A program made the position numbers and the translations under genes. 64,000 bases of DNA from Escherichia phage vB_Eco_F27, in the sequence record OP870146.1; one strand, written 5' to 3'. A model generated the notes under the pieces. The model was not told the DNA's origin. It did not search any database and worked only from the letters and a program-made list of their open reading frames with translations. Positions 2,512 through 45,882 of this stretch are shown one piece after another. Within the stretch, counting starts at the first letter, position 1. Each line of letters begins with the position of its first letter.

Positions 2512-3612
2512 TTACGCTGTGAAGATTTTATCCCACATCGCAACAACTGCATCTCGATTATACTTCTTCCATACTGCTTCAGCACGTTTAACTCGAGCTT
2601 CGTATGTGTCAGTAAATTCTAATACAGCTTTTGTGTAAAGCGCAACTACTTCTTTCTTAGGAGTAGAGGAATCAATTTCTACACGCACAGTATCTGGGTC
2701 GTATTCAAATGTCGCATGAGGATAATCCTTAAAAACTAACTGGATTACAGGGACACCTTTAGAGATGGCTTCAATAGAACTATTCTCTACCGTACCTGTG
2801 TCAGGACACGTATTAATAAGTGCTTTAGCTGTTTTAAGACGTTCCATGATTTCACTGTGTGGAGCATCAATAATAACAGGATACTTAGCCGGTGGTGCCC
2901 ATTTGCTTGGACAATAACCAATACCATTTTCGCCTAGTGCTTTAATCGCTTCAAGAGCAACATCAGTACGACGCATTTTAGTGTCATAACGTTGTGCACT
3001 AATAATCAGATCAGTCGCCGGAAGAACTTCAGGTTTCTCATTCAAACAAATAACCGGATAATCTTCGGCTTCAAACAACGGATTTGCTCGCCAATAATCA
3101 TAATCAATTTTGTCAGTCAGACCTGAAGTCATATAACAATATTTGCGTTCAAATTCACGGAAGGCTTTAGTAGGAGCATAACTCTTACCGCCATTCTTAT
3201 GAATTTGAATAGTCTGGTCCCAAATTTGAACAATGCCACGAGATACCGGTTCAAATGGTGTTGCCATAAAATTCTTATGAACTTTAGAGAGACCTGCGTC
3301 TTTAATTGCCTGAACGGTTAGTTTAGTCGGTTCCATAGTAACAACAAAATCGTATTCATGGATGCCGGCTAGTTCAACAATCTTACGAGCCATAGTATAA
3401 CTCATACCTAGACTGAATTTTGTCAGATGACCAACAGGATGATGATTAACCTTCCAATCACCAAACGTGTCATTATCAAAACCGATATAATCAATATCGG
3501 CACCAATAGAAACTAAATATTTCAACACATTTAAATGTACTGCTTCAAGACCACCTTGTACACGGTCAGGATTAAATGGGACTGCACGAGATGGGATAAA
3601 CATAACTTTCAT
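2512..3612 (-). CDS. putative glycosyltransferase, GT-B fold (candidate DNA hmC glycosyl/arabinosyl-transferase)
   Basis: 366 aa; N-terminal MKVMFIPSRAVPFNPDRVQGGLEAVHLN and C-terminal ENSSIEAISKGVPVI resemble GT1/GT-B donor-binding motifs; sits between rIIA and gene 39 where T4 has gene 60 and mobA. Confidence 0.55.
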   Translation of the reverse strand: MKVMFIPSRAVPFNPDRVQGGLEAVHLNVLKYLVSIGADIDYIGFDNDTFGDWKVNHHPVGHLTKFSLGMSYTMARKIVELAGIHEYDFVVTMEPTKLTVQAIKDAGLSKVHKNFMATPFEPVSRGIVQIWDQTIQIHKNGGKSYAPTKAFREFERKYCYMTSGLTDKIDYDYWRANPLFEAEDYPVICLNEKPEVLPATDLIISAQRYDTKMRRTDVALEAIKALGENGIGYCPSKWAPPAKYPVIIDAPHSEIMERLKTAKALINTCPDTGTVENSSIEAISKGVPVIQLVFKDYPHATFEYDPDTVRVEIDSSTPKKEVVALYTKAVLEFTDTYEARVKRAEAVWKKYNRDAVVAMWDKIFTA

Positions 3613-23365: not shown

Positions 23366-23707
23366 TTAAAAGAATTTAAATTTTTTCTTGGTTCGTTCAT
23401 TAAAAGCTTGTTGTACTTGCATTGTAACACATTTTTCAACATGTGGTGCAAGTTCTGCTTTTCTGTCCTGGTCAAGAACTGCAAAGTCCATTACGATTTT
23501 ACCATCAACCCAGTCTAGTTTTGTAATATAGACTATATGATGGGAACCGTCTTCAAGTGTAATCAGAATCTCTTGAATGACATTTTCCATTGCTGAACGG
23601 ATAATTTTAAGAGATTCATTAAACACTCGTTCTTTGCGAATGTCTTCCCCTTCCGAAGAAGGGGATTCATCAACGATTTCTAGATTTAAATCATCGAGAT
23701 TATTCAT
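23366..23707 (-). CDS. hypothetical protein at gene 40 position
   Basis: Located between 41 and uvsX as T4 gene 40; start taken at MNNLDDLNLEIV (alternative start 23728). Confidence 0.5.
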   Translation of the reverse strand: MNNLDDLNLEIVDESPSSEGEDIRKERVFNESLKIIRSAMENVIQEILITLEDGSHHIVYITKLDWVDGKIVMDFAVLDQDRKAELAPHVEKCVTMQVQQAFNERTKKKFKFF

Positions 23708-24872
23708 CGAAATCTTCCATTTCGTCAAGGTCGTTTTCTATATCTGCTGCAGACGGAGCATCAGAAGTTTTAACCGGAACTTTAGTTGTTGCTTTGCAAT
23801 TAATAAGGTCGTTAACAGCGTCATCAACTTCTTTAATAGAAGAGATAGCACCTAGTTTATATTTAGTTTCAATTGCATCTCGGAAAGGTTTGTGTTTAAA
23901 CAAAGGTCCCCAGAATTCTACACAATCAGTAGCTTTAGCACGCCATGATTTTTCTTCACGAATCATTTCACCTGTTTCTTCGTCAAGGAATTCACGAGCA
24001 TACCAACCAGCTTTAGGCTTAACAACAAATCCAATTTCAGTTGCCATTTCTAACAAGCCACTGAATGGATCAATACCGCCATCAAAATTAACCGTGATCG
24101 GGAAAGTAGATTTCTCTTTAACTGTACGAGATTTTTCTGCTTTCAACGTGAAGTCATAACCGGTCAATTCTGTACCTTCTTTAACCTGACGTTTAGAGAT
24201 AAAGAATACAGTGTTAGCAGAGTAAAGAATACCTGTACCACCACCCATAATCTCTTTAGGATATAGTCCGCCGATTTCCATTGCGGTATGGTTAATTGCA
24301 ACACACGGAATATCTTTAATAGTCAGATACGGGGTCACAATACGGAAAAGAGATTTAAGTGCCTTAGCACGAGACATATCACCTACAACTTTCTCGTTCA
24401 ACGCATCTTCGGTTTCTTTCTTAGATGCAGTATTACCGATTGAATCGATAAAGATAATAACTTTATCACCGCGTTCAATCGCGTCAAGCTGATTAGTCAT
24501 ATCAACTTTAAGTTGTTCGACAGATTGAATCGGAGTATGAACTACACGGTCTAAATCAACACCCATTGAACGAAAATAAGATTCCGAAGCACCGAATTCT
24601 GAGTCATAAAACAAACAGATTGCATCTTTATATTTCTTCATATATGCTGCAACCATGGTCAGTCCAAACAACGTTTTAAAGTGTTTAGAAGGAGCAGCAA
24701 AAATAGTCAAGCCTGATTGCAATCCTGCATTCAGAGCACCACCTAGTGCAATATTCAACATCGGAATACGAGTAGGGACTTCATCACGATTATTAAACAG
24801 CTTAGACTTAGTCAAGTCTGCAGTCATTTTAGAAGTAGAAGCTTTAATCAGACGAGATTTTAAATCAGACAT
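23700..24872 (-). CDS. uvsX: UvsX recombinase (RecA-like)
   Basis: 390 aa, MSDLKSRLIKASTSK..., RecA Walker A/B; close to recalled T4 UvsX. Confidence 0.95.
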   Translation of the reverse strand: MSDLKSRLIKASTSKMTADLTKSKLFNNRDEVPTRIPMLNIALGGALNAGLQSGLTIFAAPSKHFKTLFGLTMVAAYMKKYKDAICLFYDSEFGASESYFRSMGVDLDRVVHTPIQSVEQLKVDMTNQLDAIERGDKVIIFIDSIGNTASKKETEDALNEKVVGDMSRAKALKSLFRIVTPYLTIKDIPCVAINHTAMEIGGLYPKEIMGGGTGILYSANTVFFISKRQVKEGTELTGYDFTLKAEKSRTVKEKSTFPITVNFDGGIDPFSGLLEMATEIGFVVKPKAGWYAREFLDEETGEMIREEKSWRAKATDCVEFWGPLFKHKPFRDAIETKYKLGAISSIKEVDDAVNDLINCKATTKVPVKTSDAPSAADIENDLDEMEDFDE

Positions 24873-24970: not shown

Positions 24971-25519
24971 TTAACGAGCCCATTTGATAATTTCTGTAAT
25001 CAAATAATTACGTTCGCTTGCATTAAATCCTATAACTTTGTTAGCACCATCATGATTAAGTAATTGATACGTTTGGATTTTGTTATGAATTGCAAACTCT
25101 TCAAAATGTGAAATGACTGTATTAAAACCGAATGAAGACAAAGTAATAAGGTCGTCTTCAAAACTTTCAGTCATTTCGTTACGTGTTAAAATAATTGTGA
25201 ACACATCATGGTTTTGGCAAAGACGAACATAATCCTGCTCATAAACATCAAGAACAGAGTCCGCATCTTGTCGAATACGTCCATAAACCCAGTTACTAAT
25301 ATATCCACGGTCTAACAGATAAATCTTAGTAGGGTCTAAATAATTCAACATCGTTTCGAAACAACCAACTTCGTTTCGAGACTTAACATCGAAACGTCCA
25401 TCAACCGTTCGTTTAGGGAAATCAATCTTTACATATCTTTCACTAATTTCCATTATGTCATTAATGAAAGTTGTTTTACCAGCATTATCCGGGCCATCTA
25501 CTAAAATAATTTTAGCCAT
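24971..25519 (-). CDS. P-loop nucleotide kinase, thymidylate-kinase-like
   Basis: Walker A ILVDGPDNAGKTT; LLDRGYISNWVYG resembles Tmk DRY/S motif; occupies the slot where T4 has beta-gt. Confidence 0.55.
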   Translation of the reverse strand: MAKIILVDGPDNAGKTTFINDIMEISERYVKIDFPKRTVDGRFDVKSRNEVGCFETMLNYLDPTKIYLLDRGYISNWVYGRIRQDADSVLDVYEQDYVRLCQNHDVFTIILTRNEMTESFEDDLITLSSFGFNTVISHFEEFAIHNKIQTYQLLNHDGANKVIGFNASERNYLITEIIKWAR

Positions 25520-25520
25520 T

Positions 25521-26420
25521 TTATTCCTCGATTACAACATCTTCGTATTTAGGTATATTATACGGTGAAGAAATTAAAGCATTAAAGTAGATGAACTCAC
25601 CAAGACCTGGATGGAATACTTCTTCAGGATTTTCGAAATATTGAATCTTCGGACGTCCTTTAAGAATTTGATAGTACTCAGTTTTAGTTGGTTTAAAAAT
25701 TCGAATCAACGCTTCTTCAGGATACTTATTTCTGTCGAAGCTATTATTTGGATCGGTTATATAAAGCGGTTGACCTAATTGAATTGCGCATTCAACCACT
25801 TGTTCAAAACGATAGCATGGGTCACTAATTCGAAATGGATGAAAAATACCATCTAGATGAATAGGAGCCAAATCACCTACAAGACGCTGCATGATGGAAG
25901 GACGTATAACTTTCTGCGTTACGATAATCTTATTACCATCTGCACCAGCGTTAACCAGCACTTCTTTTTGACGTTCATTCAACACAGTAGTTTGAAGTGA
26001 ACGATTAACCGACAACATATCGGTTTTTAAGAATTCGTCAATATAAAAACGTGGTTTATTAGGGTCTGCAGTGATATTGAAATTGAATTCCACATCAAAA
26101 GCGCCGTCATATCCAGTGATATCTGTGATTAGAAAATCACAATCATAATAAGCAATTAATGAATCAACCACAAATTCATTTTCAGACCAGAAATATTTAC
26201 GAGTGTTATACGCGTTATCTTTATACCATAATGGAACAAACTTAAATTCTGGGAAAAGACGTTCACATTCTTTAATATCAGATGCATTACGTGGATATGT
26301 AATCACATCACCCGGATTAGCACGGTGCAAATGAAGTTGGAAGTTGCCATCCTTAAGGATAGCATACTGTCCAGTTTCATAAGACCGCATACTCAAAATA
26401 GGTACGCGGAAAATAGCCAT
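25521..26420 (-). CDS. hypothetical protein (candidate modification enzyme)
   Basis: 299 aa, no recognisable motif; in operon with gene 42 and Tmk-like kinase. Confidence 0.45.
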   Translation of the reverse strand: MAIFRVPILSMRSYETGQYAILKDGNFQLHLHRANPGDVITYPRNASDIKECERLFPEFKFVPLWYKDNAYNTRKYFWSENEFVVDSLIAYYDCDFLITDITGYDGAFDVEFNFNITADPNKPRFYIDEFLKTDMLSVNRSLQTTVLNERQKEVLVNAGADGNKIIVTQKVIRPSIMQRLVGDLAPIHLDGIFHPFRISDPCYRFEQVVECAIQLGQPLYITDPNNSFDRNKYPEEALIRIFKPTKTEYYQILKGRPKIQYFENPEEVFHPGLGEFIYFNALISSPYNIPKYEDVVIEE

Positions 26421-27136
26421 TAGTCAAGGAATCCTTTAACATAATCAAAATCACGTTCAAACACATGGGCACTTACCATGGTATGAGTATAATCACCAAC
26501 TTCTACACCGCATTCGTTAGCGATATAATGAAGTAATTTTCCTTGGAGATAAAAATCCAACTGCATAACAACAGCACAGTTCTGAGAACGCATATGACAA
26601 TGGGTATAAAGCTTACCATCACGAATATAATAAGTCACTGAGTCAGTACATGGATATTCAAGCGTTTCGTCTGAATCAAGCAAAGCCTGATCAGAACTTT
26701 CTAGAATTTGGAACACAACTCTTCGGGAGTTAGGCTTCTCTTTAAGTTCTTTTAGAAGAGCTGGTAATTGGGCCGCAATGCGAGGACCATAGAAAGTGTT
26801 GAAGTTCGCCGGCAAAACATCTGATTTTGGTTTAGAAATAAATTTAGCGACATTAGGATATGCCTTAAACGCTTCTTCTGCGTTGGTACCACCAGAAATC
26901 ATAAACTTCCAGAAGTCTTCGGCATATTCATAAGAGATGCGGTTAATACGTGGGTCGGTCATTTTGAATGATGATGGAGTGTCAACAACTACTGTCATAG
27001 ACCCAATTTCATTACAACGTCCAATACGAGAATCAGTTACGAATTCCGGGTTTTCTAAAATTTCACGATTGACTGCTTTAAATGCGGTTTGAAAATCTGC
27101 GGCTTTGATATATTTCATTGTGTTATGTTTTCCCAT
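26420..27136 (-). CDS. 42: dCMP hydroxymethylase (thymidylate-synthase superfamily)
   Basis: PCTDSVTYYIRDGKLYTHCHMRSQNCAVVM...HTMVSAHVFE matches the TS-fold active-site block (catalytic Cys, MRS, D); 238 aa close to T4 gp42 size. Confidence 0.8.
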   Translation of the reverse strand: MGKHNTMKYIKAADFQTAFKAVNREILENPEFVTDSRIGRCNEIGSMTVVVDTPSSFKMTDPRINRISYEYAEDFWKFMISGGTNAEEAFKAYPNVAKFISKPKSDVLPANFNTFYGPRIAAQLPALLKELKEKPNSRRVVFQILESSDQALLDSDETLEYPCTDSVTYYIRDGKLYTHCHMRSQNCAVVMQLDFYLQGKLLHYIANECGVEVGDYTHTMVSAHVFERDFDYVKGFLD

Positions 27137-27178
27137 GTTTACCTCAATACAATTTATTATATACTCAATTCGTAAAGC

Positions 27179-27418
27179 TTATTTGAATTTCTTGACAATG
27201 TTGATATAACGTAAAGCTTCAGCATCGATACTTCCAAGAACACTATGAAGAAATGCATCAGCGTAGTATTCCAATTGAACAGGTTCTTTAATCACTTTAG
27301 CCGCTTTAGTTTCAAACAGGCCCATCAGGGCCTTTTTAAGAATTTGTTCATTAGTGTTCAGTTTAATAGTCAAAATCTCTTCATTAAGTTGGTGGTTAAA
27401 AGTTTTTCTAGAAATCAT
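27179..27418 (-). CDS. hypothetical protein
   Basis: 79-aa ORF between Cys-rich enzyme and gene 42. Confidence 0.45.
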   Translation of the reverse strand: MISRKTFNHQLNEEILTIKLNTNEQILKKALMGLFETKAAKVIKEPVQLEYYADAFLHSVLGSIDAEALRYINIVKKFK

Positions 27419-28575
27419 TCCGGGTACCTCAAAGCGTCATCAGAGTTAGTTATATCAATAATAGATATAGAGTTTTCTGCTAACCCGTTTTTAGATAATT
27501 GACGTTTATAATATCTTTCACAATATGTACACGTCGTCCCGCAGATTTCATTAGCACAATCGAAATCTGGATGTCTGAACCACCTTTTTTCTAAAAAGCC
27601 ATCTAACAAAGAGGTTTCAATATTTACTGTATGTGAAAACTCGGTCTCATTTTCAAGAGTGAAAATAGTCTCTAAAGGCTTCCACAGTTCTAACAAATTA
27701 CCTTCAAACTTTTCAGAAGCGTATGCTTCAAGAACTTTCAAAATGTAGTCTGTGCTACCTGTACGTCCTGAAACTTTGAATTGAGTGATACCAATATCAT
27801 TATAAAGTTTCAAATCTTGAGGACGAACAAAACGAGTTCTCAACCAGTTAAATGGGTCTGTATCACGAGCTTTAATGCAGTGTTGCATTGGGTATCCGTT
27901 TAAGGATTTAGCATCATCAGCTGTAACATCAGTACTATGGAAAATATAGCAAGAGTCACGATAGCTACAATGTGTTGTATACCCTTTACCAGCATTAGAA
28001 CAGAACTCATTTACAAGAACTTCAAATATTATATTGTTCTTATTGCAAAACTCTGCTGCACGCTTCAGGAAAGAAACTGAACGGTTCTTATGAATTCCAC
28101 AGCAGACCTTTTTGATATTATATTGGTCATGCAAGTATTTGATTTGAGTTACAGCATCGACATGTAGAATTGTTGAAACTTCAATCTCAATGTCTTTATT
28201 GACTTCACGAACAATTTCCATAACAACAGGGTTAGCGATAGTAATACGCCATACGCCTATTGACCAAAGATACTGAACATAATCCTGAATAGCTTTCTTC
28301 TTCCACTCAACTAGTTCTCTTTTTGAACCAGGATTTATCGTGTTGAGTGTATAGTTAAAGCAAATACCTAATTCGTTACAACGTTTAACGTAATCTTCTA
28401 ACATCTTTTTGTCAACGTCAGGAAGCCTAAAATCAGGTCTGGCTGCTACAAAAGCCATTTCTCTTGTAGAGCCGTATACTTCGTTTATCAAGCTATTAGG
28501 ATAAGTTTTATTGAGCTCTACGATTTTATCAAGAAGAGCTAAATCAAAATTCGTTCCGATTTTAAAAGTATTCAT
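27415..28575 (-). CDS. Cys-rich hypothetical enzyme (possible Fe-S/metal cluster protein)
   Basis: 386 aa; FCSNAGKGYTTHCSYRDSC and C-terminal CANEICGTTCTYC (Cx4Cx3Cx2C); faint resemblance to peptidase-U32/TIM-barrel family. Confidence 0.45.
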   Translation of the reverse strand: MNTFKIGTNFDLALLDKIVELNKTYPNSLINEVYGSTREMAFVAARPDFRLPDVDKKMLEDYVKRCNELGICFNYTLNTINPGSKRELVEWKKKAIQDYVQYLWSIGVWRITIANPVVMEIVREVNKDIEIEVSTILHVDAVTQIKYLHDQYNIKKVCCGIHKNRSVSFLKRAAEFCNKNNIIFEVLVNEFCSNAGKGYTTHCSYRDSCYIFHSTDVTADDAKSLNGYPMQHCIKARDTDPFNWLRTRFVRPQDLKLYNDIGITQFKVSGRTGSTDYILKVLEAYASEKFEGNLLELWKPLETIFTLENETEFSHTVNIETSLLDGFLEKRWFRHPDFDCANEICGTTCTYCERYYKRQLSKNGLAENSISIIDITNSDDALRYPE

Positions 28576-28634
28576 TTTTTTTTTGCATCTCGCGTTAATT
28601 GGTGCGATGGTTTTTGCAGGTCTTACTTAAATTA

Positions 28635-29036
28635 TTATAGATTCGGTTTATATGATTTAAATGTTTCGAATTCGCCTTTATTCATAAGAGCTTTGAATTC
28701 GTCAGGACGCATAGCTTTGTCGTCGATAATCCAATCATATACTGGTTTATGTGTTAGCAAATTATGGTACTTCAAGCCAATGTTTGCCAAGTTCTGAATC
28801 AGACTTGGGAGAATGTCAATTGCTATACGACCAGGACCTACTGACTTCATACCGCGAGCAGTGTAAAGCGTTATGGTATGCCCTGCATCATACAGAGCAT
28901 TAATGGCAGACACCATTTCGACGTCTGGTTTGAAGTTCACGTAATCACGATTGTTATTCCACTCTGTTATACAATCATCGACATCAAAACAAAGATTAAG
29001 CATGTTTTCTACACGGTGCATTAGATTCGTTCCCAT
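28635..29036 (-). CDS. small HAD-family phosphatase, KdsC-like
   Basis: Motif I FDVDDCIT (same spacing as KdsC FDVDGVLT), motif II TLYTAR, Lys and terminal DD motifs. Confidence 0.6.
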   Translation of the reverse strand: MGTNLMHRVENMLNLCFDVDDCITEWNNNRDYVNFKPDVEMVSAINALYDAGHTITLYTARGMKSVGPGRIAIDILPSLIQNLANIGLKYHNLLTHKPVYDWIIDDKAMRPDEFKALMNKGEFETFKSYKPNL

Positions 29037-30706
29037 TGATGAGTGATATCGCCACCGATTGGACGATAGGAAACACCAGTTTCTTTATCAGTTAGTACCC
29101 ATTTACCAGGATTTTTTGTAATCAGAGTAGCCGTTACAGGTTCTGCTACGTCATAACTAATAGAGCCGTCTTGAAGTACACGGCCCATATTACGTAATTG
29201 CTTAGTCAGAAGTTCCATACCTTTATAATATGCGGCTACCGCTTTAAGTGGATTATTCTTGAAATAACCACCTAATGCAATCCAGATAATTGCCACTGCC
29301 AAATGATGATACTCGTTAAACGAACTCATCTTTCCATATTTGTAAACTAATGGATTGATGTTAATAGTCACATTACAAGTTGTTTCATCAATAGTAAACT
29401 GTCCCCAGGTCGGATTAGCGTTGAATTCATCATAACCTGAAACAGCATAAAGCACTTTAGCTTCATCATACAATTTTGGCCCGTAAATCTTTGTTTCGCC
29501 AAAATATCCACGAGGGTCGATAAATTTGACTTCGCCGTTATCAGTAATCATAGTATTACTGAAGTTCGGGTCACCATGAATAACAGAGTACTGTCCCTGA
29601 GAACGGTTATGATAACGAATAAGGTGTTCTAAAGCTTGTTTCAGCATTGGCTTCAGACGTCCAATCTTAGTGTAGTTCACATGTGTGATTTTACCAAATG
29701 AATCAATCAATGGTTGAATGCTTTCACAACGATCAATAACTTTCGTATAGAATTCTTTAGTGAAATCACGACGAACAGTTTCAGGACTTACAAAATAAGT
29801 GTCTGTGCTGAATTTCAGTGCATCTAAAATTGCATCAACAATTTGTGGACGAGCAAGACTTGATTTGGATTTAATATATTCAAATGCCGGCTTACCTTTA
29901 ATGCGTTCCATTTCAAAGTTATTTTCATTAACAGAAACTAACTGAGGGACTGAATCTGATTTCACTTTCAAATACCACGAAATCTCATCTTTCTGAAGAG
30001 CTCGGCCCTGTTCGGTTAATGCGAATTTAGTTACAGTTTCTTCACCAATTTCAACTGCATTAAAACTACGATTAAGTTCACGAACTTCATGAGCTTTTTC
30101 AAGTTTAGGCATATCACCTAAATCAATTAGATTCATAAGCTCTGATTTATTGAATGCGCTGGCGTAAAGGAATTCTACGAAATCACGTCCTTTGCAGTAT
30201 TCATGAATTTCCTCATCGGTAGAACCCATATAGAATTCCCAGTCTTTGAACTGATAAATTCCTACAACATTACCACCTGTTGAACCTACGTTAGTGATAT
30301 TTTCACCGTCGAAATTATATCGACATTCGTCACCCTTAACATAGATTGCGTTAACATTCCAAGACCATGAACCAAAATCAGGAATAATATCACACCAGTT
30401 AACAATTACGTTATGGCCGTCTAAATCTTTGTGTAATTTAGCAAGAGCATAAGCAGAACCATACGCTTCATCAACTGTACGAATAGTCACATTGAACCCT
30501 TCTTGCTCACAATAAGCTCGAACAGTTTCAGCAAATTTTGAATGAACTACTACAATAATTTCATCTGCGCCAAGGTCAGAATAAATTGTATACAAATTGC
30601 TCAGAATAGTGTCTTGTTTATAGTTAACAAGCACCTTAGGAATATGATGCGTTATTGGATATAAACGAGTTGCCAATCCAGCACCAAGAATAACAGCTTT
30701 TTTCAT
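29021..30706 (-). CDS. bifunctional sugar-1-phosphate nucleotidyltransferase / APH-type sugar kinase
   Basis: N-terminus ILGAGLATRLYPIT..PKVLV (RmlA/GlmU-type G-x-G-T-R-L); C-terminus HGDPNFSNTMITDNGEVKFIDPRGYFG (APH/choline-kinase Brenner and DFG-like motifs). Confidence 0.7.
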   Translation of the reverse strand: MKKAVILGAGLATRLYPITHHIPKVLVNYKQDTILSNLYTIYSDLGADEIIVVVHSKFAETVRAYCEQEGFNVTIRTVDEAYGSAYALAKLHKDLDGHNVIVNWCDIIPDFGSWSWNVNAIYVKGDECRYNFDGENITNVGSTGGNVVGIYQFKDWEFYMGSTDEEIHEYCKGRDFVEFLYASAFNKSELMNLIDLGDMPKLEKAHEVRELNRSFNAVEIGEETVTKFALTEQGRALQKDEISWYLKVKSDSVPQLVSVNENNFEMERIKGKPAFEYIKSKSSLARPQIVDAILDALKFSTDTYFVSPETVRRDFTKEFYTKVIDRCESIQPLIDSFGKITHVNYTKIGRLKPMLKQALEHLIRYHNRSQGQYSVIHGDPNFSNTMITDNGEVKFIDPRGYFGETKIYGPKLYDEAKVLYAVSGYDEFNANPTWGQFTIDETTCNVTININPLVYKYGKMSSFNEYHHLAVAIIWIALGGYFKNNPLKAVAAYYKGMELLTKQLRNMGRVLQDGSISYDVAEPVTATLITKNPGKWVLTDKETGVSYRPIGGDITHQWERI

Positions 30707-30747
30707 GTTGAAGTCCTCATTGGTAAGTAGGAGTATTGTACACTATT

Positions 30748-30891
30748 CTAGTTAAAGCATTCATACTTTGCTTGTAGTCCAATCATAATCCATCCAATTA
30801 CAAGTGTTGGAATCATTACTGGAGCCGTTAAGCTCCAGTAGATAGTCATGACAAGCATCAATAGTAAAAGTCCTATTGTTATTGCTTTCAT
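30748..30891 (-). CDS. small membrane protein
   Basis: 47-codon ORF not in track (MKAITIGLLLLMLVMTIYWSLTAPVMIPTLVIGWIMIGLQ...); ATGA overlap with SIS gene stop. Confidence 0.4.
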   Translation of the reverse strand: MKAITIGLLLLMLVMTIYWSLTAPVMIPTLVIGWIMIGLQAKYECFN

Positions 30892-31523
30892 TGCTCGCCT
30901 CGTAACATGGCACCTAGTGCACCACCTGGATGGAACTTAAGGAAATCATTAGAGGTAAATCCACGTTCAGACGAAAGGTTGATAGCAAACGTATCGATAA
31001 GCGCTAACAACAATGTAGTGGACATAGTCGGAGCCAGAGAATTCTCATCAACCTCTACTGCGATGCCTGCACAGAAAGAATAATCAAAAAGGGCTTCATT
31101 TTCTTGTGGAATGTCCGGGTTACAATGCAACAGAATCTGTTTGACGTTCGGTCGAATCATTTTAAGATGCTTAGCCACGCCTATCATTTCTTCAGTTTTA
31201 CCAGAACGACTAATATGAATCAACACGTCATTAGGCGCAATAAATCCTGCATCACCGTGAGAATAATGCCCAGTGTTCAAGTACATACTCGGGATACCGA
31301 GTGAAGCAAATGTCTCAGAAGCTTTAGTTGCAATATTAGCATTCTTACCAACACCTGTAATAATTACACGACTTTCATAATTACTCAGTCCCGGGCGTCG
31401 AAGAGTTTCTAGAATAGCATTATAACGAGCAGGGTTTTGACTAATTACTTTGGCCATAGCGGCCAAAGAAGAAGCTTGTTTTATGATTGCGTCAATAGCG
31501 ATAGTAATAGGAGTAGTTTTCAT
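30888..31523 (-). CDS. SIS-domain sugar-phosphate isomerase, arabinose-5-phosphate isomerase (KdsD/GutQ)-like
   Basis: VIITGVGKNANIA ... HGDAGFIAPNDVLIHISRSGKTEE ... APTMSTTLLLALIDTFA ... FHPGGALG match SIS motifs. Confidence 0.75.
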   Translation of the reverse strand: MKTTPITIAIDAIIKQASSLAAMAKVISQNPARYNAILETLRRPGLSNYESRVIITGVGKNANIATKASETFASLGIPSMYLNTGHYSHGDAGFIAPNDVLIHISRSGKTEEMIGVAKHLKMIRPNVKQILLHCNPDIPQENEALFDYSFCAGIAVEVDENSLAPTMSTTLLLALIDTFAINLSSERGFTSNDFLKFHPGGALGAMLRGEQ

Positions 31524-31563: not shown

Positions 31564-34275
31564 TCAAAAATCGAACATATCGAACAGAGATGCTTTCTTC
31601 TCGTAATCGAGTTTCGCTGCTGATGTGAATCCTTCAAGTGGTTTAATAAATGTCTTCTCAAGGAGAACAGTGTAGTCCATCCAATGAAGTACATCGTCTT
31701 TAATTAAATCTGTGATTTCAGTACCAGAAGGCCATGCGATACATTTATCACCGAATGGGTTTCCTTCACGTAAAGGCAGAACATATACTTTTTCACCTTC
31801 TACAACTTGCGGTGCATCGATATTACCTTTGATAGCCCGGTTATACGTCAGAATTCCACGAATATGGAACGGGCATTTGGGACCAGGGAATCCACCTACG
31901 TCATATTTAGCAATGTTATTCGCAGAAGATACCGACGCGATGCTAATATAATTCAATTGACGGAATTCTTTTTCAAACTCTTTAAAATATTCTTGTAATG
32001 ATTCTTCACCTTCTTGAAGCATACGACGAATACATTCTTTAAGAGCTTTCTGTACTGCTTTAGGGGTCGAAGATTTCTGAGTTTCTAGACCCATGATTTT
32101 GAGTTTAGGCTCGGCGTAACGAGTACCTTCCATATCCCACACGTTTAATGCATAACGTTTCTTACCAGTCCAGAATCCACCAATACCTTTAGAACCGAGC
32201 GGAGGACCAGCGATAGCTTCTCGGTCCATGAACATTAAGTGTTGTTTATTGTTCATGTATTCACACATTTCACGGAAACCTCTATCAATAGCAGGTTCCA
32301 TACGTTCACGTGCAAACTTATCTAAGAAGTCTACCCAATGGTTAGTATCGCGGAATTTAGATTCACCGACCTTATCGATAATTTTATCGGCGGATACGTA
32401 AATAGAGTCTGTATCACCATAAAGAACGAAAGCTTCACCTTCTGTACCACAAACTTCATTCAGATATTCATTAACTTTACGTTCAATCCACTGTAAAGCC
32501 ATTTGACCAAATGTTGTGATTGCAGTTGCATTACGCAAATCGTAATAACGGAACCAAACGTTTCCAAGTGCACCATAAAGCGAGTTGATAAGCAATTTAC
32601 GGTTAATTTGTGCAGTCATACCTGCAACTTCAGTACGTTGAGCTCTAAACAACATTTCATTAAGAGATTTAGCAGACAACTTTTTAATCTTTTCTTTAAT
32701 CTCATCACTGAAGTCGAAACGATAATCAACATCTAATGGTTCGTCAACAGAAAGATTAGGATTATGCAATGCCTCTTTAATTATTTCGCCATTACGTTGA
32801 GCTGCAAGCATGTAACCTTTATGTTCTTTACGTTGATTAAAGACCTTAGTGATTTCAGTTGGAACTACACCATCACGGTCTTTATAATACATCATGCCGT
32901 TAGGAGAGCAACTGTACACATCTGAAGGACGTTCAGCGATTGCGTTAATATAATCATGCAGTGGAGCTACTTTAAACGTTCCTGCTATTGTTTCAGGGCT
33001 AATATTCACTTGGCGAATAATACTTGGATACAGAGATGTAAGGTCGAAACTCATTACATATTTGTATCGATTTGGAATAGGTTCCTTAACAAAAGCGCCA
33101 GGATAAGGTTGAACCGGGTGAGAACGACCTTGTGGAATCACCTTGTTCTGCTCTTTAAGGCTATTAAAAATAATAGCATCCCATGTTTTAATTGGACTGA
33201 ACACAGATTGAATCTGAATTTTAGCATAATAACCCATGTCCAAACTCAAGTTGATGAACTGACGCTTAGCATCAATTTGCAATACACGATATACGTCGAT
33301 AATGTTATAAGAAATATATCGTTGGTGATTGCTTTCACGAAGTTTAGAAATAGGACCGTCGTATTTCAGTTTACCAACGTTCAATTCAAATTCTGAAATG
33401 TAATCCAGAGAATACGACGGTTGGTTCGTGAAAGAGAACTTTTTGTAAAGGTCAATGTAATCAAGAACAGAGATACCGAACAATGTAATGATTTCACGAG
33501 AACCATACATGTTTTCGATAACTTTAACACGAGTTTTACGATGTGGTGATAAACGTTTAGCGGTAGATTCGCCAAAAATATTCTTGATTCGGTTATACAC
33601 ATATGGAATATCAAATGACTCAACGTTCCATCCAGTCAAAATGACAGGAGTTTTCTGTTGCCAGAAATTGAGATATTCCATCAATAATTCTTTTTCATTA
33701 TCAAACGGCATATAAACAATTTTGTCGATAATTTCGGATGGAACTTCATCACCACCTTGTTCTTGAAGCTTAGCCGCAATTTCGATAGACCATTCTTCTA
33801 CATTACCATATGGAGAATTCAATAGATCAAATACGTAGAACCTGTCGTCAATTGAGTCATAATGGGTGATAGCATCAATCGGATGTTTTGCTTGTGACGG
33901 CTCAGGGAACCCGTCCGGAGATGTTACTTCGATGTCGAAGTTAGCCACACGAATTTTTGTATGGTCGTATTTGATTTCATAGTTATAAGTGTCAGACAAA
34001 TACGCCAATTTGAAATCGTCCATGCCAAGTGCTTCAAGTCCGATATCTTCCATGCGTTTAATCCATTGTGAGGCATCACGCATATTAGCGAACAACTTAC
34101 GAGTACACGGCTTACCATAGATATCGAAATATTTCGTAGCCTGACTTTCTGGACAATGAGCAAACAGTGATGGTTTATATTCTACTTCACGAGTACGTTC
34201 ACGGCCATTAGAATCGATGTAACGTTCAAAAATTGAATCACCGATCTGTTCAACCGTTAAGTAAAATTCTTTCAT
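31564..34275 (-). CDS. 43: DNA polymerase, family B
   Basis: 903 aa; exo motifs FDIEV, YNIIDV; pol motifs DLTSLYPSII, KILINSLYGALG, YGDTDS; N-terminus as recalled for RB69 gp43. Confidence 0.97.
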   Translation of the reverse strand: MKEFYLTVEQIGDSIFERYIDSNGRERTREVEYKPSLFAHCPESQATKYFDIYGKPCTRKLFANMRDASQWIKRMEDIGLEALGMDDFKLAYLSDTYNYEIKYDHTKIRVANFDIEVTSPDGFPEPSQAKHPIDAITHYDSIDDRFYVFDLLNSPYGNVEEWSIEIAAKLQEQGGDEVPSEIIDKIVYMPFDNEKELLMEYLNFWQQKTPVILTGWNVESFDIPYVYNRIKNIFGESTAKRLSPHRKTRVKVIENMYGSREIITLFGISVLDYIDLYKKFSFTNQPSYSLDYISEFELNVGKLKYDGPISKLRESNHQRYISYNIIDVYRVLQIDAKRQFINLSLDMGYYAKIQIQSVFSPIKTWDAIIFNSLKEQNKVIPQGRSHPVQPYPGAFVKEPIPNRYKYVMSFDLTSLYPSIIRQVNISPETIAGTFKVAPLHDYINAIAERPSDVYSCSPNGMMYYKDRDGVVPTEITKVFNQRKEHKGYMLAAQRNGEIIKEALHNPNLSVDEPLDVDYRFDFSDEIKEKIKKLSAKSLNEMLFRAQRTEVAGMTAQINRKLLINSLYGALGNVWFRYYDLRNATAITTFGQMALQWIERKVNEYLNEVCGTEGEAFVLYGDTDSIYVSADKIIDKVGESKFRDTNHWVDFLDKFARERMEPAIDRGFREMCEYMNNKQHLMFMDREAIAGPPLGSKGIGGFWTGKKRYALNVWDMEGTRYAEPKLKIMGLETQKSSTPKAVQKALKECIRRMLQEGEESLQEYFKEFEKEFRQLNYISIASVSSANNIAKYDVGGFPGPKCPFHIRGILTYNRAIKGNIDAPQVVEGEKVYVLPLREGNPFGDKCIAWPSGTEITDLIKDDVLHWMDYTVLLEKTFIKPLEGFTSAAKLDYEKKASLFDMFDF

Positions 34276-34303: not shown

Positions 34304-34336
34304 TTTGTTTGTTGATGAACTTATTATACTCCAAAT

Positions 34337-34350
34337 GGGACCGAAGTCCC
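34337..34350 (-). terminator. GC-rich UUCG-tetraloop hairpin after regA
   Basis: GGGAC-UUCG-GUCCC; weak U-tract. Confidence 0.4.
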
Positions 34351-34356
34351 ATTGCT

Positions 34357-39671: not shown

Positions 39672-39900
39672 TACACGCTTCAGCCATTTTAATAATAGAG
39701 CCGGGAGTATCGTTGTCCATTATATTAAAGCTAAATTCAATAGCCCAGTCGGTGCAGACATGAACTGCTTTAACTTCATTGCCTTCAACGCGTAATGGCT
39801 CAATCCAATACTTGATGGTGTTCTCGAATCCATCATCATCTTTAACGTCTATTTCAACTTCAAGCCCGAGCCCAGCATTGTTAAATTCATCTAAAGTCAT
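39643..39900 (-). CDS. hypothetical protein
   Basis: 85-aa acidic ORF. Confidence 0.4.
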   Translation of the reverse strand: MTLDEFNNAGLGLEVEIDVKDDDGFENTIKYWIEPLRVEGNEVKAVHVCTDWAIEFSFNIMDNDTPGSIIKMAEACIEDAYNDED

Positions 39901-40916
39901 TGTGTTGCCTCAATATAAAGTTCGTTGGAATATTTGACCAGCGCTTCTCTGTCTTCGTCTGAGATATCTGGAATCGCGTCAATATATTCTTTAATGATAT
40001 CTTGAAGTGATTTAATCTCGATTTCCTGGTCGTCATCAGATTCAACACTGTTATCAACTTTAGAAACCATACGAAGAGAGTGAACTACTTTTTCAAGTTC
40101 AGATTCAAACTTAGTCAACTCTGAATCAATTTCTGATACTATAACACGTACGGCTAGATTAGTATAATCAGAATAATTAATTTTGCCTTTAAACGGATAA
40201 GTGATTCGTCGATGCCATGTTGTTTCATTAGGAATAAATTCCATACGTTCAACATCAGTGTCAAATACCCAGAATCCGCGTGGGTCGTTCTCATCGCCTG
40301 CAGTAAGGGTCCATGGTGTCCCAATATATTTGACGTTAGCAGCTTCAGAGATTGTGTGGAAGTGGCCGGACCAGACTTGTTTATAGGTCTTTAAGAAATC
40401 AGGTTCAAGCCCATGAGACTTCATTCCTTTATAGAAATAAAAGCCATTCAGTTCCCAGTGACCAACACAATACGCAGCAGAAGAAGTCTTGATGTGCTCT
40501 AATATTTCACCTGTATTTTCTTCACACATCCATGGAACGATATCAATCAGACATCCGTCAAAATCTACAGTAGTCGGATGCTCGTAAATAGTAAAGTTTT
40601 CAAATTGAGTTAACAATTCAGAAACAGTGTTAGGTGTTATTGTATTCTTAAACGCCATGTCATGGTTTCCTATCGTGACATGAACGTGAATGCCTGCTTT
40701 AGAAATCATATCAACGATTTCACGATTGAATTCCATTGTACGATGTGTTATTGCTTTACGGACGTCAAACCAATCACCGTACTGAATCCAAGTTTTAATC
40801 CCGTGTTTCTTAGAGTATTCAATTGCTTGATGAATACCATCACGTTGAATATCTTGAACCCATGGGTCGTCTTGTTTGACTCCGATATGGAAGTCGCCTA
40901 AGTGCAAAATTTTCAT
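39897..40916 (-). CDS. 47: recombination endonuclease subunit (SbcD/Mre11-like phosphoesterase)
   Basis: MKILHLGDFHIG ... GNHDM calcineurin-like motifs; 339 aa. Confidence 0.9.
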   Translation of the reverse strand: MKILHLGDFHIGVKQDDPWVQDIQRDGIHQAIEYSKKHGIKTWIQYGDWFDVRKAITHRTMEFNREIVDMISKAGIHVHVTIGNHDMAFKNTITPNTVSELLTQFENFTIYEHPTTVDFDGCLIDIVPWMCEENTGEILEHIKTSSAAYCVGHWELNGFYFYKGMKSHGLEPDFLKTYKQVWSGHFHTISEAANVKYIGTPWTLTAGDENDPRGFWVFDTDVERMEFIPNETTWHRRITYPFKGKINYSDYTNLAVRVIVSEIDSELTKFESELEKVVHSLRMVSKVDNSVESDDDQEIEIKSLQDIIKEYIDAIPDISDEDREALVKYSNELYIEATQ

Positions 40917-41705: not shown

Positions 41706-41921
41706 TTATCTCATTAAATTAAAATAAAAACGTCCGTCCTCTTCAATACAGAACTCGTACTCAACTGGAGTTCCATTTATCGAAAATGACACGTCATGTG
41801 GGTTCAAAGGGTCGATGTCAAAATTAATTTTAAATTCTCGACCCAACAGTTTTACCAAATAAGGGATTGCTTCGTCAAAAGGTTCTTCTAAGTAGTTAGA
41901 GATGTCAATTGTCATCCTCAT
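41706..41921 (-). CDS. hypothetical protein
   Basis: Start taken at MRMTIDIS downstream of gene 55 stop. Confidence 0.4.
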
Positions 41922-42480
41922 ATAAAAAATCCAAACTAGGCGAATCGCTAACAACTTCCTTCTTTTCAGCCCCAGGAGCTTTATAAGCGGATTCTTCATA
42001 ATGCGTCATTTTATCGTAGATGTCTTGAATAAACGTTTCATCTACCAACGCTACCATATCATCGTCATGACTGTCGTAGACATTATGAACGAAGTAACTA
42101 TATTTCTTTGCAACTTCCTTACGTTCTTTTTTGATACGTTGGACAAAAGCATTAAAACAAGCTCGAGTTATGTATGCATGTGGGTTATTGTACTTAGTTT
42201 CGTCGAAATTATGAAGTCCCTTAATAGAGGCTTCAATCCCATCTGCAATCATCTCCTGCTTCCAAGACTGGGTATATCCTGAAAAGTTGAAACGTTTGGA
42301 CAGGCCTTCGGCGATAAGCATAATTGCTAAACCGATGGTATCATTCTGACGAATAATTTTGTTTGGGTCTTTATTATTTAAGAGCTCCTTTTTCCATTCG
42401 ATTATAGCGGCGAGAAGCTCTTTATTATTCACATAGTTATTTTTAGGTTTTTGTTCAGTCATAAGTACCTCTTGGCTCAA
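41905..42480 (-). CDS. 55: late-transcription sigma factor
   Basis: [83 protein letters not shown] nearly identical to recalled T4 gp55. Confidence 0.95.
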
Positions 42481-45411: not shown

Positions 45412-45882
45412 TTAATCATGTTTCCACACCCCATCGGTATTTGACCAAAGTCGCTGATTATCTGATCCTCGCCACAGCTTTTTAGTCGGAAGATTTTTCT
45501 CATACTTCCCATCAATAATAACATCAACATATTTAAGCATTTCTAGTTGTTTAATATCTTCAAACTTATATCCTGTCCACAACCAAATGCTTTTATTGGG
45601 ATAAAGATTTTTTACTGTTTGAACAATGCAATGAATAACATCTCGGTTATCAGGATAGAGAGGGTCACCTCCGGTTATAGTTAATCCTTCTATATAATCA
45701 TTATTCAAACATTCAATTAATTGTTCTAGTGTTTCACCAGTGAATGGAACACCATTTCTAGCATTCCATGTTGATTTATTATAACACCCTTCGCATTTAT
45801 GCAAACAACCCGTAACGAAAAGAACGACCCTGCATCCAGGGCCATTCACAAAATCGCAAGGATAAAATCTATCATAATTCAT
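45412..45882 (-). CDS. nrdG: anaerobic ribonucleotide reductase activating protein (radical SAM)
   Basis: CLHKCEGC CxxxCxxC motif near N-terminus; 156 aa. Confidence 0.93.
   Translation of the reverse strand: MNYDRFYPCDFVNGPGCRVVLFVTGCLHKCEGCYNKSTWNARNGVPFTGETLEQLIECLNNDYIEGLTITGGDPLYPDNRDVIHCIVQTVKNLYPNKSIWLWTGYKFEDIKQLEMLKYVDVIIDGKYEKNLPTKKLWRGSDNQRLWSNTDGVWKHD

Follow-up and report, generated by a model that had tools for sequence, protein, structure and literature searches.

RB69-type phages (Mosigviruses) carry the closest described counterparts of the locus that we analyze here. RB69 DNA contains arabinose, and matrix-assisted laser desorption/ionization (MALDI) and high-performance anion-exchange chromatography (HPAEC) led to the report of arabinosyl-hydroxymethylcytosine (ara-hmC) as the modified base (Thomas et al. 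2018, PMC6024577). Using LC-MS (liquid chromatography–mass spectrometry) and nuclear magnetic resonance (NMR), RB69 cytosines were later found to be replaced with mono- and di-arabinofuranosyl 5-hydroxycytosine, the sugar being attached straight to C5 through an ether linkage (Lee et al. 2026, PMC13326640). The same nucleosides occur in phage NP, an independent Mosigvirus, and that report calls the earlier ara-hmC assignment erroneous (PMC13390438). RB69 gp48 produces 5-hydroxy-dCMP (5hodCMP) with oxygen drawn from 18O2, and the enzyme bears a flavin (Lee et al. 2026, PMC13326640); the same paper reports that the HY126 enzyme, which is 97.9% identical to the one described here, likewise makes 5hodCMP. 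We examined a 64-kb stretch of Escherichia phage vB_Eco_F27 (sequence record OP870146.1), hereafter the window, and focused on positions 24971-31523. Judging from protein similarity, we are highly confident that this region is a Mosigvirus (RB69-type) arabinosyl-5-hydroxycytosine (5hoC) DNA hypermodification cluster. The cluster and its gene-by-gene pathway have been described before (Thomas 2018; Mahler 2025; He 2026; Lee 2026). Product structure, key hydroxylase, and sugar route are therefore known, and it is the gene for a U32-family protein, together with its chorismate mutase partner in related phages, that presents a testable hypothesis.

Between uvsX (23700-24872) and gene 43 (31564-34275) lie nine tightly packed minus-strand open reading frames (ORFs) of 182, 299, 238, 79, 386, 133, 561, 47, and 211 aa across the interval 24971-31523. 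All nine were found where the original prediction, made from the sequence by itself, had placed them. Its family calls (SIS, fused nucleotidyltransferase/kinase, HAD phosphatase, ThyA-fold, and Tmk-like P-loop) are backed by profile searches with Pfam, NCBIfam, and PHROG. The parts of the system, including two that map outside this interval, are as follows, with functions predicted from homology.

30888-31523, minus strand: SIS-only D-arabinose-5-phosphate isomerase, RB69 gp55 homolog; SIS and KpsF/GutQ profiles; 99.5% identical to RB69, 98.6% to HY126
30748-30891, minus strand: 47-aa two-segment hydrophobic peptide (orf47), RB69 gp54 homolog; phrog_3610, function unknown
29021-30706, minus strand: bifunctional AfhE-like nucleotidyltransferase/kinase, 561 aa; 99% identical to RB69 gp53:52, 96.8% to HY126 AfhE
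28635-29036, minus strand: AfhF-like HAD phosphatase, 133 aa; TIGR01689; 100% identical to HY126, 99.2% to RB69 gp51
27415-28575, minus strand: U32-family iron-sulfur (Fe-S) protein, 386 aa, RB69 gp50 homolog; Pfam Peptidase_U32
27179-27418, minus strand: 79-aa helical ORF (orf79), Mosigvirus-only; near-identical Mosigvirus homologs only
26420-27136, minus strand: 5-hydroxy-dCMP synthase, ThyA-fold, 238 aa, RB69 gp48 homolog; 99.2% identical to RB69 gp48, 97.9% to HY126
25521-26420, minus strand: first DNA arabinosyltransferase, 299 aa, RB69 gp46:47 homolog; 99-100% identical to RB69 ORF046/047, 99.3% to HY126; phrog_3891
24971-25519, minus strand: Tmk-like P-loop nucleotide kinase, 182 aa, RB69 gp45 homolog; phrog_761, E 2e-45
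2515-3612, minus strand: second arabinosyltransferase, RB69 ORF003c homolog, outside 24971-31523; tblastn 99.5% over 366 aa
16036-16554, minus strand: gp56 dCTPase; tblastn 97.1% to RB69 gp56

A megablast search with the block matched 213 phage records, which include RB69, G53, NRG-P0074, JS09, HY126, and other Mosigviruses. Coverage was at least 80% in 151 of these records, and identity was 95-99% in 154. Over the whole block, nucleotide identity to RB69, HY126, and G53 is 98-99%, and the individual proteins are 97-100% identical to those of RB69 and HY126. The original prediction was right that the locus supplies arabinose, as a nucleotide sugar, for DNA glycosylation in a phage of the RB69 type. 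Two genes that sequencing errors have split in RB69 are intact single ORFs in the window (299 and 561 aa), in line with what the re-sequencing of RB69 had predicted.

The 238-aa protein had been read as gene 42, the dCMP hydroxymethylase, and its presence as a sign that the DNA still contains hmC. We find neither to be the case. The protein matches Pfam Thymidylat_synt (PF00303; 56.9 bits), and its identity to T4 gp42 is 25%. We aligned it with E. coli ThyA, T4 gp42, RB69 gp48, and the HY126 enzyme, and then with eight more phage homologs, using E. coli ThyA numbering. The catalytic Cys146 is kept, and the substitutions relative to E. coli ThyA are L143E, N177D, D169N (in RSQN), W80A, and G173V. 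The D169N/N177D/L143E state is the same in 12 phage homologs; T4 gp42 has D169. Asn at ThyA position 169 is the published diagnostic of 5hodCMP synthases, and N177D signifies dCMP specificity. The gp42-type folate-site residues W80, D169, and G173 are kept by T4 gp42 and replaced in the window protein. Given 25% identity to gp42 and a 5hodCMP-synthase signature, in a protein whose HY126 and RB69 counterparts (97.9-99.2% identity) make 5hodCMP, the argument from gene 42 to hmC fails. We take the acceptor base to be 5-hydroxycytosine with ether-linked arabinofuranose, not hmC. Note that W80A and G173V accompany D169N in all 12 phage 5hodCMP-synthase homologs examined, with W80 and G173 retained in T4 gp42. 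Both substitutions fit a lost folate site and might make the sequence diagnostic sharper.

The gene 56 dCTPase, which the original prediction had also invoked, was located by tblastn. In the proposed scheme, gp56 would hydrolyze dCTP, and because dCTP is thereby removed, only the modified dCTP analogue would be incorporated. The ThyA-fold enzyme would hydroxylate dCMP at C5 with O2 and flavin to give 5hodCMP, which kinases would take to the triphosphate, and the polymerase would then insert it instead of C.

For the sugar branch, the 211-aa protein matches Pfam SIS (PF01380; 40.7 bits) and, over residues 52-207, NCBIfam KpsF/GutQ (TIGR00393; E 2.3e-32), with KdsD at E 8e-31. It covers only positions 2-153 of the 268 in the TIGR00393 model (112.7 bits versus a cut-off of 203.7). 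Scores for KpsF/GutQ and KdsD fall under their cut-offs because the C-terminal CBS pair is absent, and we regard the product as a SIS-only variant of the KpsF/GutQ/KdsD type. The 561-aa fusion has a Pfam NTP_transferase match (PF00483) at residues 3-99, weak kinase-family matches (APH/choline-kinase type) at residues 344-409, and an IHGDPNFSN Brenner-type motif. The HAD protein, which carries an FDVDD motif I, matches the TIGR01689 capsule-biosynthesis phosphatase at E 4e-13, below the cut-off (49 versus 162 bits), and has no Pfam match.

RB69 ORF055c and ORF53_52c were put forward as UDP-arabinose genes by Thomas et al. (2018, PMC6024577), and conversion of ribulose-5-phosphate (Ru5P) to arabinofuranose-5-phosphate (Araf5P) by the SIS isomerase is a proposal in PMC13326640. 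The HY126 route, as relayed in that paper (He et al. 2026 via PMC13326640), runs from Araf5P to Araf-1,5-P2 through the AfhE kinase domain, to Araf-1-P through AfhF, and to UDP-arabinofuranose (UDP-Araf) through the AfhE nucleotidyltransferase. In F27, the SIS isomerase would likewise turn ribulose-5-phosphate into arabinofuranose-5-phosphate, the C-terminal kinase half of the fusion would add the 1-phosphate to Ara5P, the HAD phosphatase would take the 5-phosphate off Ara-1,5-P2 to leave Ara-1-P, and the N-terminal nucleotidyltransferase half would convert Ara-1-P into UDP-Araf. Experiments on proteins that are 97-100% identical have established the 5hodCMP synthase activity, the reactions of AfhE and AfhF, and the product's chemical structure. 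The original prediction had instead drawn a route through free D-arabinose, which departs from the order reconstituted for HY126 (Ara5P, Ara-1,5-P2, Ara-1-P, UDP-Araf). That free-arabinose route agrees with early proposals and with Table 1 of PMC13326640, not with the reconstituted order.

The 299-aa ORF, previously listed as an unknown, corresponds to the published first arabinosyltransferase (RB69 gp46:47 homolog, 99-100%). It has no Pfam or NCBIfam match and is annotated as 'glycosyltransferase' in NRG-P0074. RB69 gp46:47 and gp3 have been assigned as arabinosyltransferases, and published fold analysis describes the gp46:47-type protein as GT-B-like (PMC13326640). Homologs of this glycosyltransferase (GT) occur in 348 phage records, 57 of them from Acinetobacter phages, a distribution that matches that of the ThyA homolog (~342 phage records, 65 from Acinetobacter phages). 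For RB69, ORF003c was also proposed as a transferase (Thomas et al. 2018, PMC6024577), and its counterpart in the window lies near rIIA, as in RB69 and HY126. As predicted, there is no T4-type alpha-gt or beta-gt; tblastn with the T4 proteins detected no homologs of either in the 64-kb window at E<1e-3. By tblastn, gp47 (39900-40916) and gp55 (41917-42462) lie ~1 kb apart. The 299-aa glycosyltransferase would put the first arabinose on the 5-OH via an ether bond, and the ORF003c-like transferase would add the second. We infer the step taken by each transferase, as well as what the Tmk-like kinase acts on and which acceptor, nucleotide or DNA, receives the first arabinose.

Several points weigh against assigning the locus to arabinosyl-5hoC synthesis. 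The assignment in phage F27 rests on 97-100% identity to the proteins of other phages, and 4 of the 11 parts (the U32 protein, orf79, orf47, and the Tmk-like kinase) are without a demonstrated role. In addition, single transferases failed to arabinosylate 5hoC-DNA in vitro (PMC13326640), so that the first transfer may be to either the nucleotide or DNA. Two other accounts of the cluster have to be set beside these points. A gp42-type dCMP hydroxymethylase could make hmC and then ara-hmC, with the sugar passing through free D-arabinose (Ara5P to Ara to Ara-1-P to NDP-Ara). Such an account can draw on an ORF that belongs to the ThyA superfamily and is syntenic with T4 gene 42, on N177D and L143E, which are common to hydroxymethylases, on the MALDI and HPAEC report of ara-hmC (PMC6024577), and on the free-arabinose scheme that PMC13326640 Table 1 still lists as a putative function. 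We nevertheless consider it very improbable: identity to T4 gp42 is only 25%; D169N, W80A, and G173V distinguish the ORF from gp42 and agree with all 5hodCMP synthases tested; NMR, MS, and 18O2 data demonstrate an ether link from 5hoC in RB69, for which the account is already refuted (PMC13326640); the ara-hmC assignment has been termed erroneous (PMC13390438); and reconstitution yields the Ara-1,5-P2 route.

The NDP-arabinose of the cluster might also be meant for a non-DNA target such as host envelope glycans or capsule, with DNA modification incidental. In favor, the best family of the HAD protein is a capsule-biosynthesis phosphatase, and the isomerase is like KpsF/KdsD of capsule and lipopolysaccharide pathways. 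This idea is extremely unlikely to be correct, as RB69 and NP virion DNA has arabinose on every cytosine, the cluster is always accompanied by a 5hodCMP synthase and a DNA glycosyltransferase, and phage transferases used UDP-Araf on DNA in vitro.

The U32 protein matches Pfam Peptidase_U32 (PF01136) with 42.2 bits (cut-off 22.4). Its AlphaFold2 (AF2) model is a TIM-barrel with a predicted local distance difference test (pLDDT) score of 91.9, and the best Foldseek match in the PDB is a U32 protein, 5d88; the same search otherwise returned only generic TIM barrels, and PDB sequence searches with the protein and its profile returned nothing meaningful. Among 121 U32 relatives, C158, C192, C203, C209, C233, and H213 are invariant. 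Also invariant in all 121 subfamily members is a C-terminal motif, C340-x4-C345-x3-C349-x2-C352 (DCANEICGTTCTYC), which is absent from UbiU, UbiV, RlhA, and TrhP and probably forms a second metal or Fe-S site. The last three Cys of this motif resemble the radical-SAM CX3CXΦC pattern. When the phage proteins are aligned with E. coli UbiU, UbiV, RlhA, and TrhP, C203 and C209 are invariant, and E185 and C192 align at the region of the essential TrhP residues E162 and C170, with the alignment near C192 off by a few columns. The essential residues of TrhP are E162, C170, and C177 (PMC6599085).

Two characterized U32 proteins act in RNA hydroxylation. Formation of 5-hydroxycytidine (ho5C2501) in 23S rRNA requires RlhA, which depends on Fe-S biogenesis and on prephenate (PMC5727448). 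TrhP carries out the prephenate-dependent, O2-independent formation of ho5U34 in tRNA and is redundant with the O2-dependent TrhO (PMC6599085). The phage protein gp50 is labelled 'sugar or heterocycle reductase' in PMC13326640 Table 1, without experiment. The paper on the Thanatos phage is silent on U32, peptidase, anaerobiosis, and chorismate, and a literature search for U32 and prephenate in bacteriophages yielded nothing further; a role for U32 may be reported in He 2026 or Mahler 2025.

The U32 protein is found in 221 phage records, and Acinetobacter is not among the genera listed. Between genera, it is 82-89% identical (the GT, 46-69%; the ThyA homolog, 66-83%), and within the cluster it ranks second only to the HAD phosphatase in conservation. 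The clusters of two phages with aerobic hosts, Acinetobacter phage fHyAci03 and Pseudomonas phage PspYZU05, contain neither U32 nor chorismate mutase; there, the HAD gene directly adjoins the D169N ThyA homolog. The Acinetobacter phage DLP3 makes Araf-5hoC without U32, so that neither the sugar nor aerobic hydroxylation depends on U32.

In other genera, U32 has a conspicuous neighbor. In Enterobacter phage Entb_45, U32 and the ThyA homolog flank an AroQ chorismate mutase gene (CM_2, 40.9 bits; cut-off 27), which overlaps the stop codon of U32. Searching by tblastn with this chorismate mutase, we recovered 51 phage records from ~12 genera with matches inside the arabinosylation cluster. Hosts of these phages are Klebsiella, Serratia (LC53 and 92A1 among them), Yersinia, Enterobacter, Edwardsiella, Erwinia, Pectobacterium, Providencia, Morganella, Kosakonia, Escherichia (EcS1), and Shewanella. 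At all six loci examined (L006:4989-6397, L019:4718-6228, L020:4850-6240, L018:1329-2731, L021:1070-2746, and L022:998-2731), the chorismate mutase comes directly after U32 or one small ORF later, passes Pfam CM_2, and keeps the catalytic Arg/Arg/Lys/Glu/Ser/Gln. The cluster of Shewanella phage Thanatos-1 is rearranged, yet U32 and chorismate mutase are adjacent and overlapping. A hidden Markov model of the phage chorismate mutase family found no chorismate mutase in the 64-kb window.

Metagenomes hold more distant U32 relatives (49-58% identity), which sit beside deoxynucleotide and glycosylation genes on phage-like contigs that are low in GC and reach 466 kb (L008:8001-9086, L011:8001-9083, L028:6001-7083, L025:6001-7086, L026:6001-7101, L027:6001-7101, and L009:8001-9098). 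No ThyA-like gene or chorismate mutase was found within 6-8 kb of them. One context comprises Tmk, UDG/DnaE, dCMP deaminase, U32, and a short-chain dehydrogenase/reductase (SDR)-like protein. Another comprises a Tmk-like protein, an ORF, U32, a TET-associated glycosyltransferase (33.9 bits, above cut-off), and dUTPase/DCD, with UDP-galactopyranose mutase farther away. A third (L025) has SIS-like and kinase-like proteins, U32, a member of the DAHP/KDO8P-synthase family, and an epimerase. In a fourth, U32 is followed by NT5C and dNK and, farther away, a radical SAM protein, a second U32, and a nucleoside deoxyribosyltransferase. A 248-aa conserved U32 partner in megaphage-like contigs was considered as a ThyA-like protein and rejected; it is weakly SDR/epimerase-like.

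By analogy with RlhA and TrhP, we tentatively propose, as the most economical reading, that U32 could hydroxylate dCMP, or cytosine in DNA, at C5 without O2 and with prephenate donating the oxygen, serving as a back-up in anaerobically growing enteric hosts; we rate this as a real possibility that falls somewhat short of an even chance. U32 would supply 5hoC where the O2-dependent ThyA-like enzyme cannot work, and the chorismate mutase present in most non-Mosigvirus genera would supply prephenate. In metagenome phages without a nearby ThyA-like or TET hydroxylase, U32 may alone provide the hydroxyl group that serves glycosylation as a handle. Such a back-up would parallel TrhP and TrhO, as well as the aerobic and anaerobic ribonucleotide reductases of such phages (NrdG was placed at 45415-45882 by tblastn). 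The proposal has its caveats: the host-lifestyle association represents few independent lineages, and Mosigviruses, the window included, do not have their own chorismate mutase and would depend on host PheA and TyrA.

The chances are about even that U32 is instead unrelated to base hydroxylation and is a sugar or heterocycle reductase, a true peptidase, or an enzyme whose substrate is host RNA or quinones, with the chorismate mutase serving another purpose. The reductase label given to gp50 in PMC13326640 and the collagenase activity reported for some U32 proteins speak for such a role, as does the setting of U32 among sugar genes (SIS, kinase, DAHP/KDO8P-synthase family, and epimerase) at L025. 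Furthermore, the ThyA-like enzyme is by itself enough for 5hodC in E. coli (PMC13326640), and the E. coli Dhakaviruses (IME08) manage without U32, which is equally a caveat for the hydroxylase proposal. Other evidence pulls the opposite way. DLP3 and other Acinetobacter phages make arabinofuranosyl-5hoC without U32, so no sugar step needs it. The genetically characterized RlhA and TrhP perform C-H hydroxylations that need prephenate and Fe-S, and chorismate mutase stays with U32 even in the rearranged Thanatos cluster. Finally, the between-genera conservation of U32 stands well above that of the GT (82-89% versus 46-69%), with only the HAD phosphatase more conserved.

The remaining parts of the cluster are less readily placed. 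Like the 299-aa protein, the 79- and 47-aa ORFs have no Pfam matches. A 57%-identical, 30-aa counterpart of orf47 lies in the unannotated 42-imm intergenic region of T4 (L003:6231-6320), and the homolog in LC53 is annotated as transmembrane. Because T4 does not arabinosylate, orf47 is probably unrelated to arabinosylation and probably represents a conserved small ORF of T4-like phages that lies outside the arabinose pathway. The orf79 product (poor AF2 model, pLDDT 65) holds the slot taken by chorismate mutase in other genera. Its HY126 copy is frameshifted into two pieces (L005:5718-5956), whereas the window copy is intact, and many database copies are shortened to 47-58 aa beside a U32 gene that is 99-100% conserved, which suggests that orf79 is decaying or dispensable. 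We also considered orf79 as a diverged chorismate mutase and rejected it: there was no BLASTP similarity, hhalign gave a probability of 0.3% against the phage chorismate mutase family, and neither Pfam, including the CM_2 profile of AroQ chorismate mutases, nor NCBIfam gave a match at E up to 10.

The Tmk-like kinase has the Walker A sequence GPDNAGKT. It adjoins the GT and ThyA homolog in DLP3, RL38J1, Thanatos, IME08, and Acinetobacter and Pseudomonas phages, and is kept beside them in every cluster version examined. Note that the RB69 gp1-type kinase already phosphorylates 5hodCMP (PMC13326640).

The block had been described as having no internal promoters, a description at odds with two candidate MotA-type sites (30761 and 25583) and with TATAAT in most intergenic gaps. 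Only a hand-made MotA middle-promoter pattern (AATGCTTTAA, 11-13 nt, TAnnnT) yielded candidates, and these are no more than matches to the consensus. On the minus strand, AATGCTTTAA...TACAAT (30735-30761) lies just upstream of the gene for the 561-aa protein, and AATGCTTTAA...TATAAT (25557-25583) lies upstream of the Tmk-like kinase gene. TATAAT elements occur in the gaps between pol and SIS, HAD and U32, orf79 and ThyA, and Tmk and uvsX. A generic sigma-70 scan returned 30 sites versus 36 expected, neither enriched nor depleted, and was uninformative. In the gap between regA and gene 43, a UUCG tetraloop caps a perfect 8-bp hairpin at 34334-34353 (AATGGGAC-TTCG-GTCCCATT), directly followed by TATAAT on the minus strand.

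Public annotations of this cluster often mislead (L001, L002, L019, and L022). There, the fusion appears as 'dCMP deaminase' or 'GlmU', the HAD phosphatase as 'phosphoheptose isomerase', the glycosyltransferase as 'RNA polymerase binding protein', the 5hodCMP synthase as 'dCMP hydroxymethylase' or 'thymidylate synthase', and U32 as 'peptidase'. Homing endonuclease genes lie in or beside the clusters of relatives, namely, NRG-P0074 (L001; 8003-8764), LC53 (L019; 4078-4716), and Thanatos-1 (L020; 7215-7868). Their insertion points differ, and the window has no insert; for genes of this kind, the region is an insertion hot spot.

Annotation from T4 synteny wrongly names the ThyA homolog 'gene 42' and predicts hmC. 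The published hydroxylase needs O2, and these phages infect gut bacteria and destroy dCTP via gp56. If the hydroxylase proposal for U32 is true, an O2-independent 5hoC route would explain the anaerobic replication of these phages and would give the U32 hydroxylase family its first substrate among DNA precursors. This would have a bearing on phage therapy in anoxic niches and on the prediction of DNA modification from sequence.

Compared with the RB69 gp45-gp55 and HY126 Afh clusters, the window has the same genes, the same order, the same flanks (uvsX and gene 43), and a second transferase near rIIA. There is essentially no difference, apart from the RB69 split genes and the HY126 frameshift in orf79, both intact here, and the homing endonuclease insert of NRG-P0074, which the window does not have. 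The clusters of Acinetobacter phages DLP3 and fHyAci03 and Pseudomonas phage PspYZU05 share the order of SIS, fusion, HAD, D169N ThyA homolog, GT, and Tmk-like kinase, but are without U32 and the small gene after it, and DLP3 has extra transferases for a third arabinose. The hmC/glucosyl-hmC system of T4 (gp42, alpha-gt, beta-gt, gp56, and gp1) follows the same logic in the same genomic slot. Both rely on a dCTPase, a ThyA-fold dCMP-modifying enzyme, kinases, gp43 for incorporation, and a UDP-sugar from which the sugar is then transferred. They differ in chemistry (folate-dependent hydroxymethylation in T4 versus flavin/O2 hydroxylation here), in linkage (C5-CH2-O versus a C5-O ether), and in sugar (host UDP-glucose versus Araf from phage enzymes), and their glycosyltransferases are unrelated. 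With RlhA and TrhP, the window U32 protein shares the Pfam U32 motif, the TIM-barrel, and aligned Glu/Cys residues that are essential in RlhA and TrhP. It is only 17-21% identical to them, is without DUF3656 and the TrhP C-terminal domain, and has its own C-terminal CX4CX3CX2C. RlhA and TrhP act on RNA, whereas the window protein would act on a deoxynucleotide or DNA. Nevertheless, their chemistry, pyrimidine C5-hydroxylation, is what the cluster needs, and dual O2-dependent and O2-independent routes have a precedent in TrhO.

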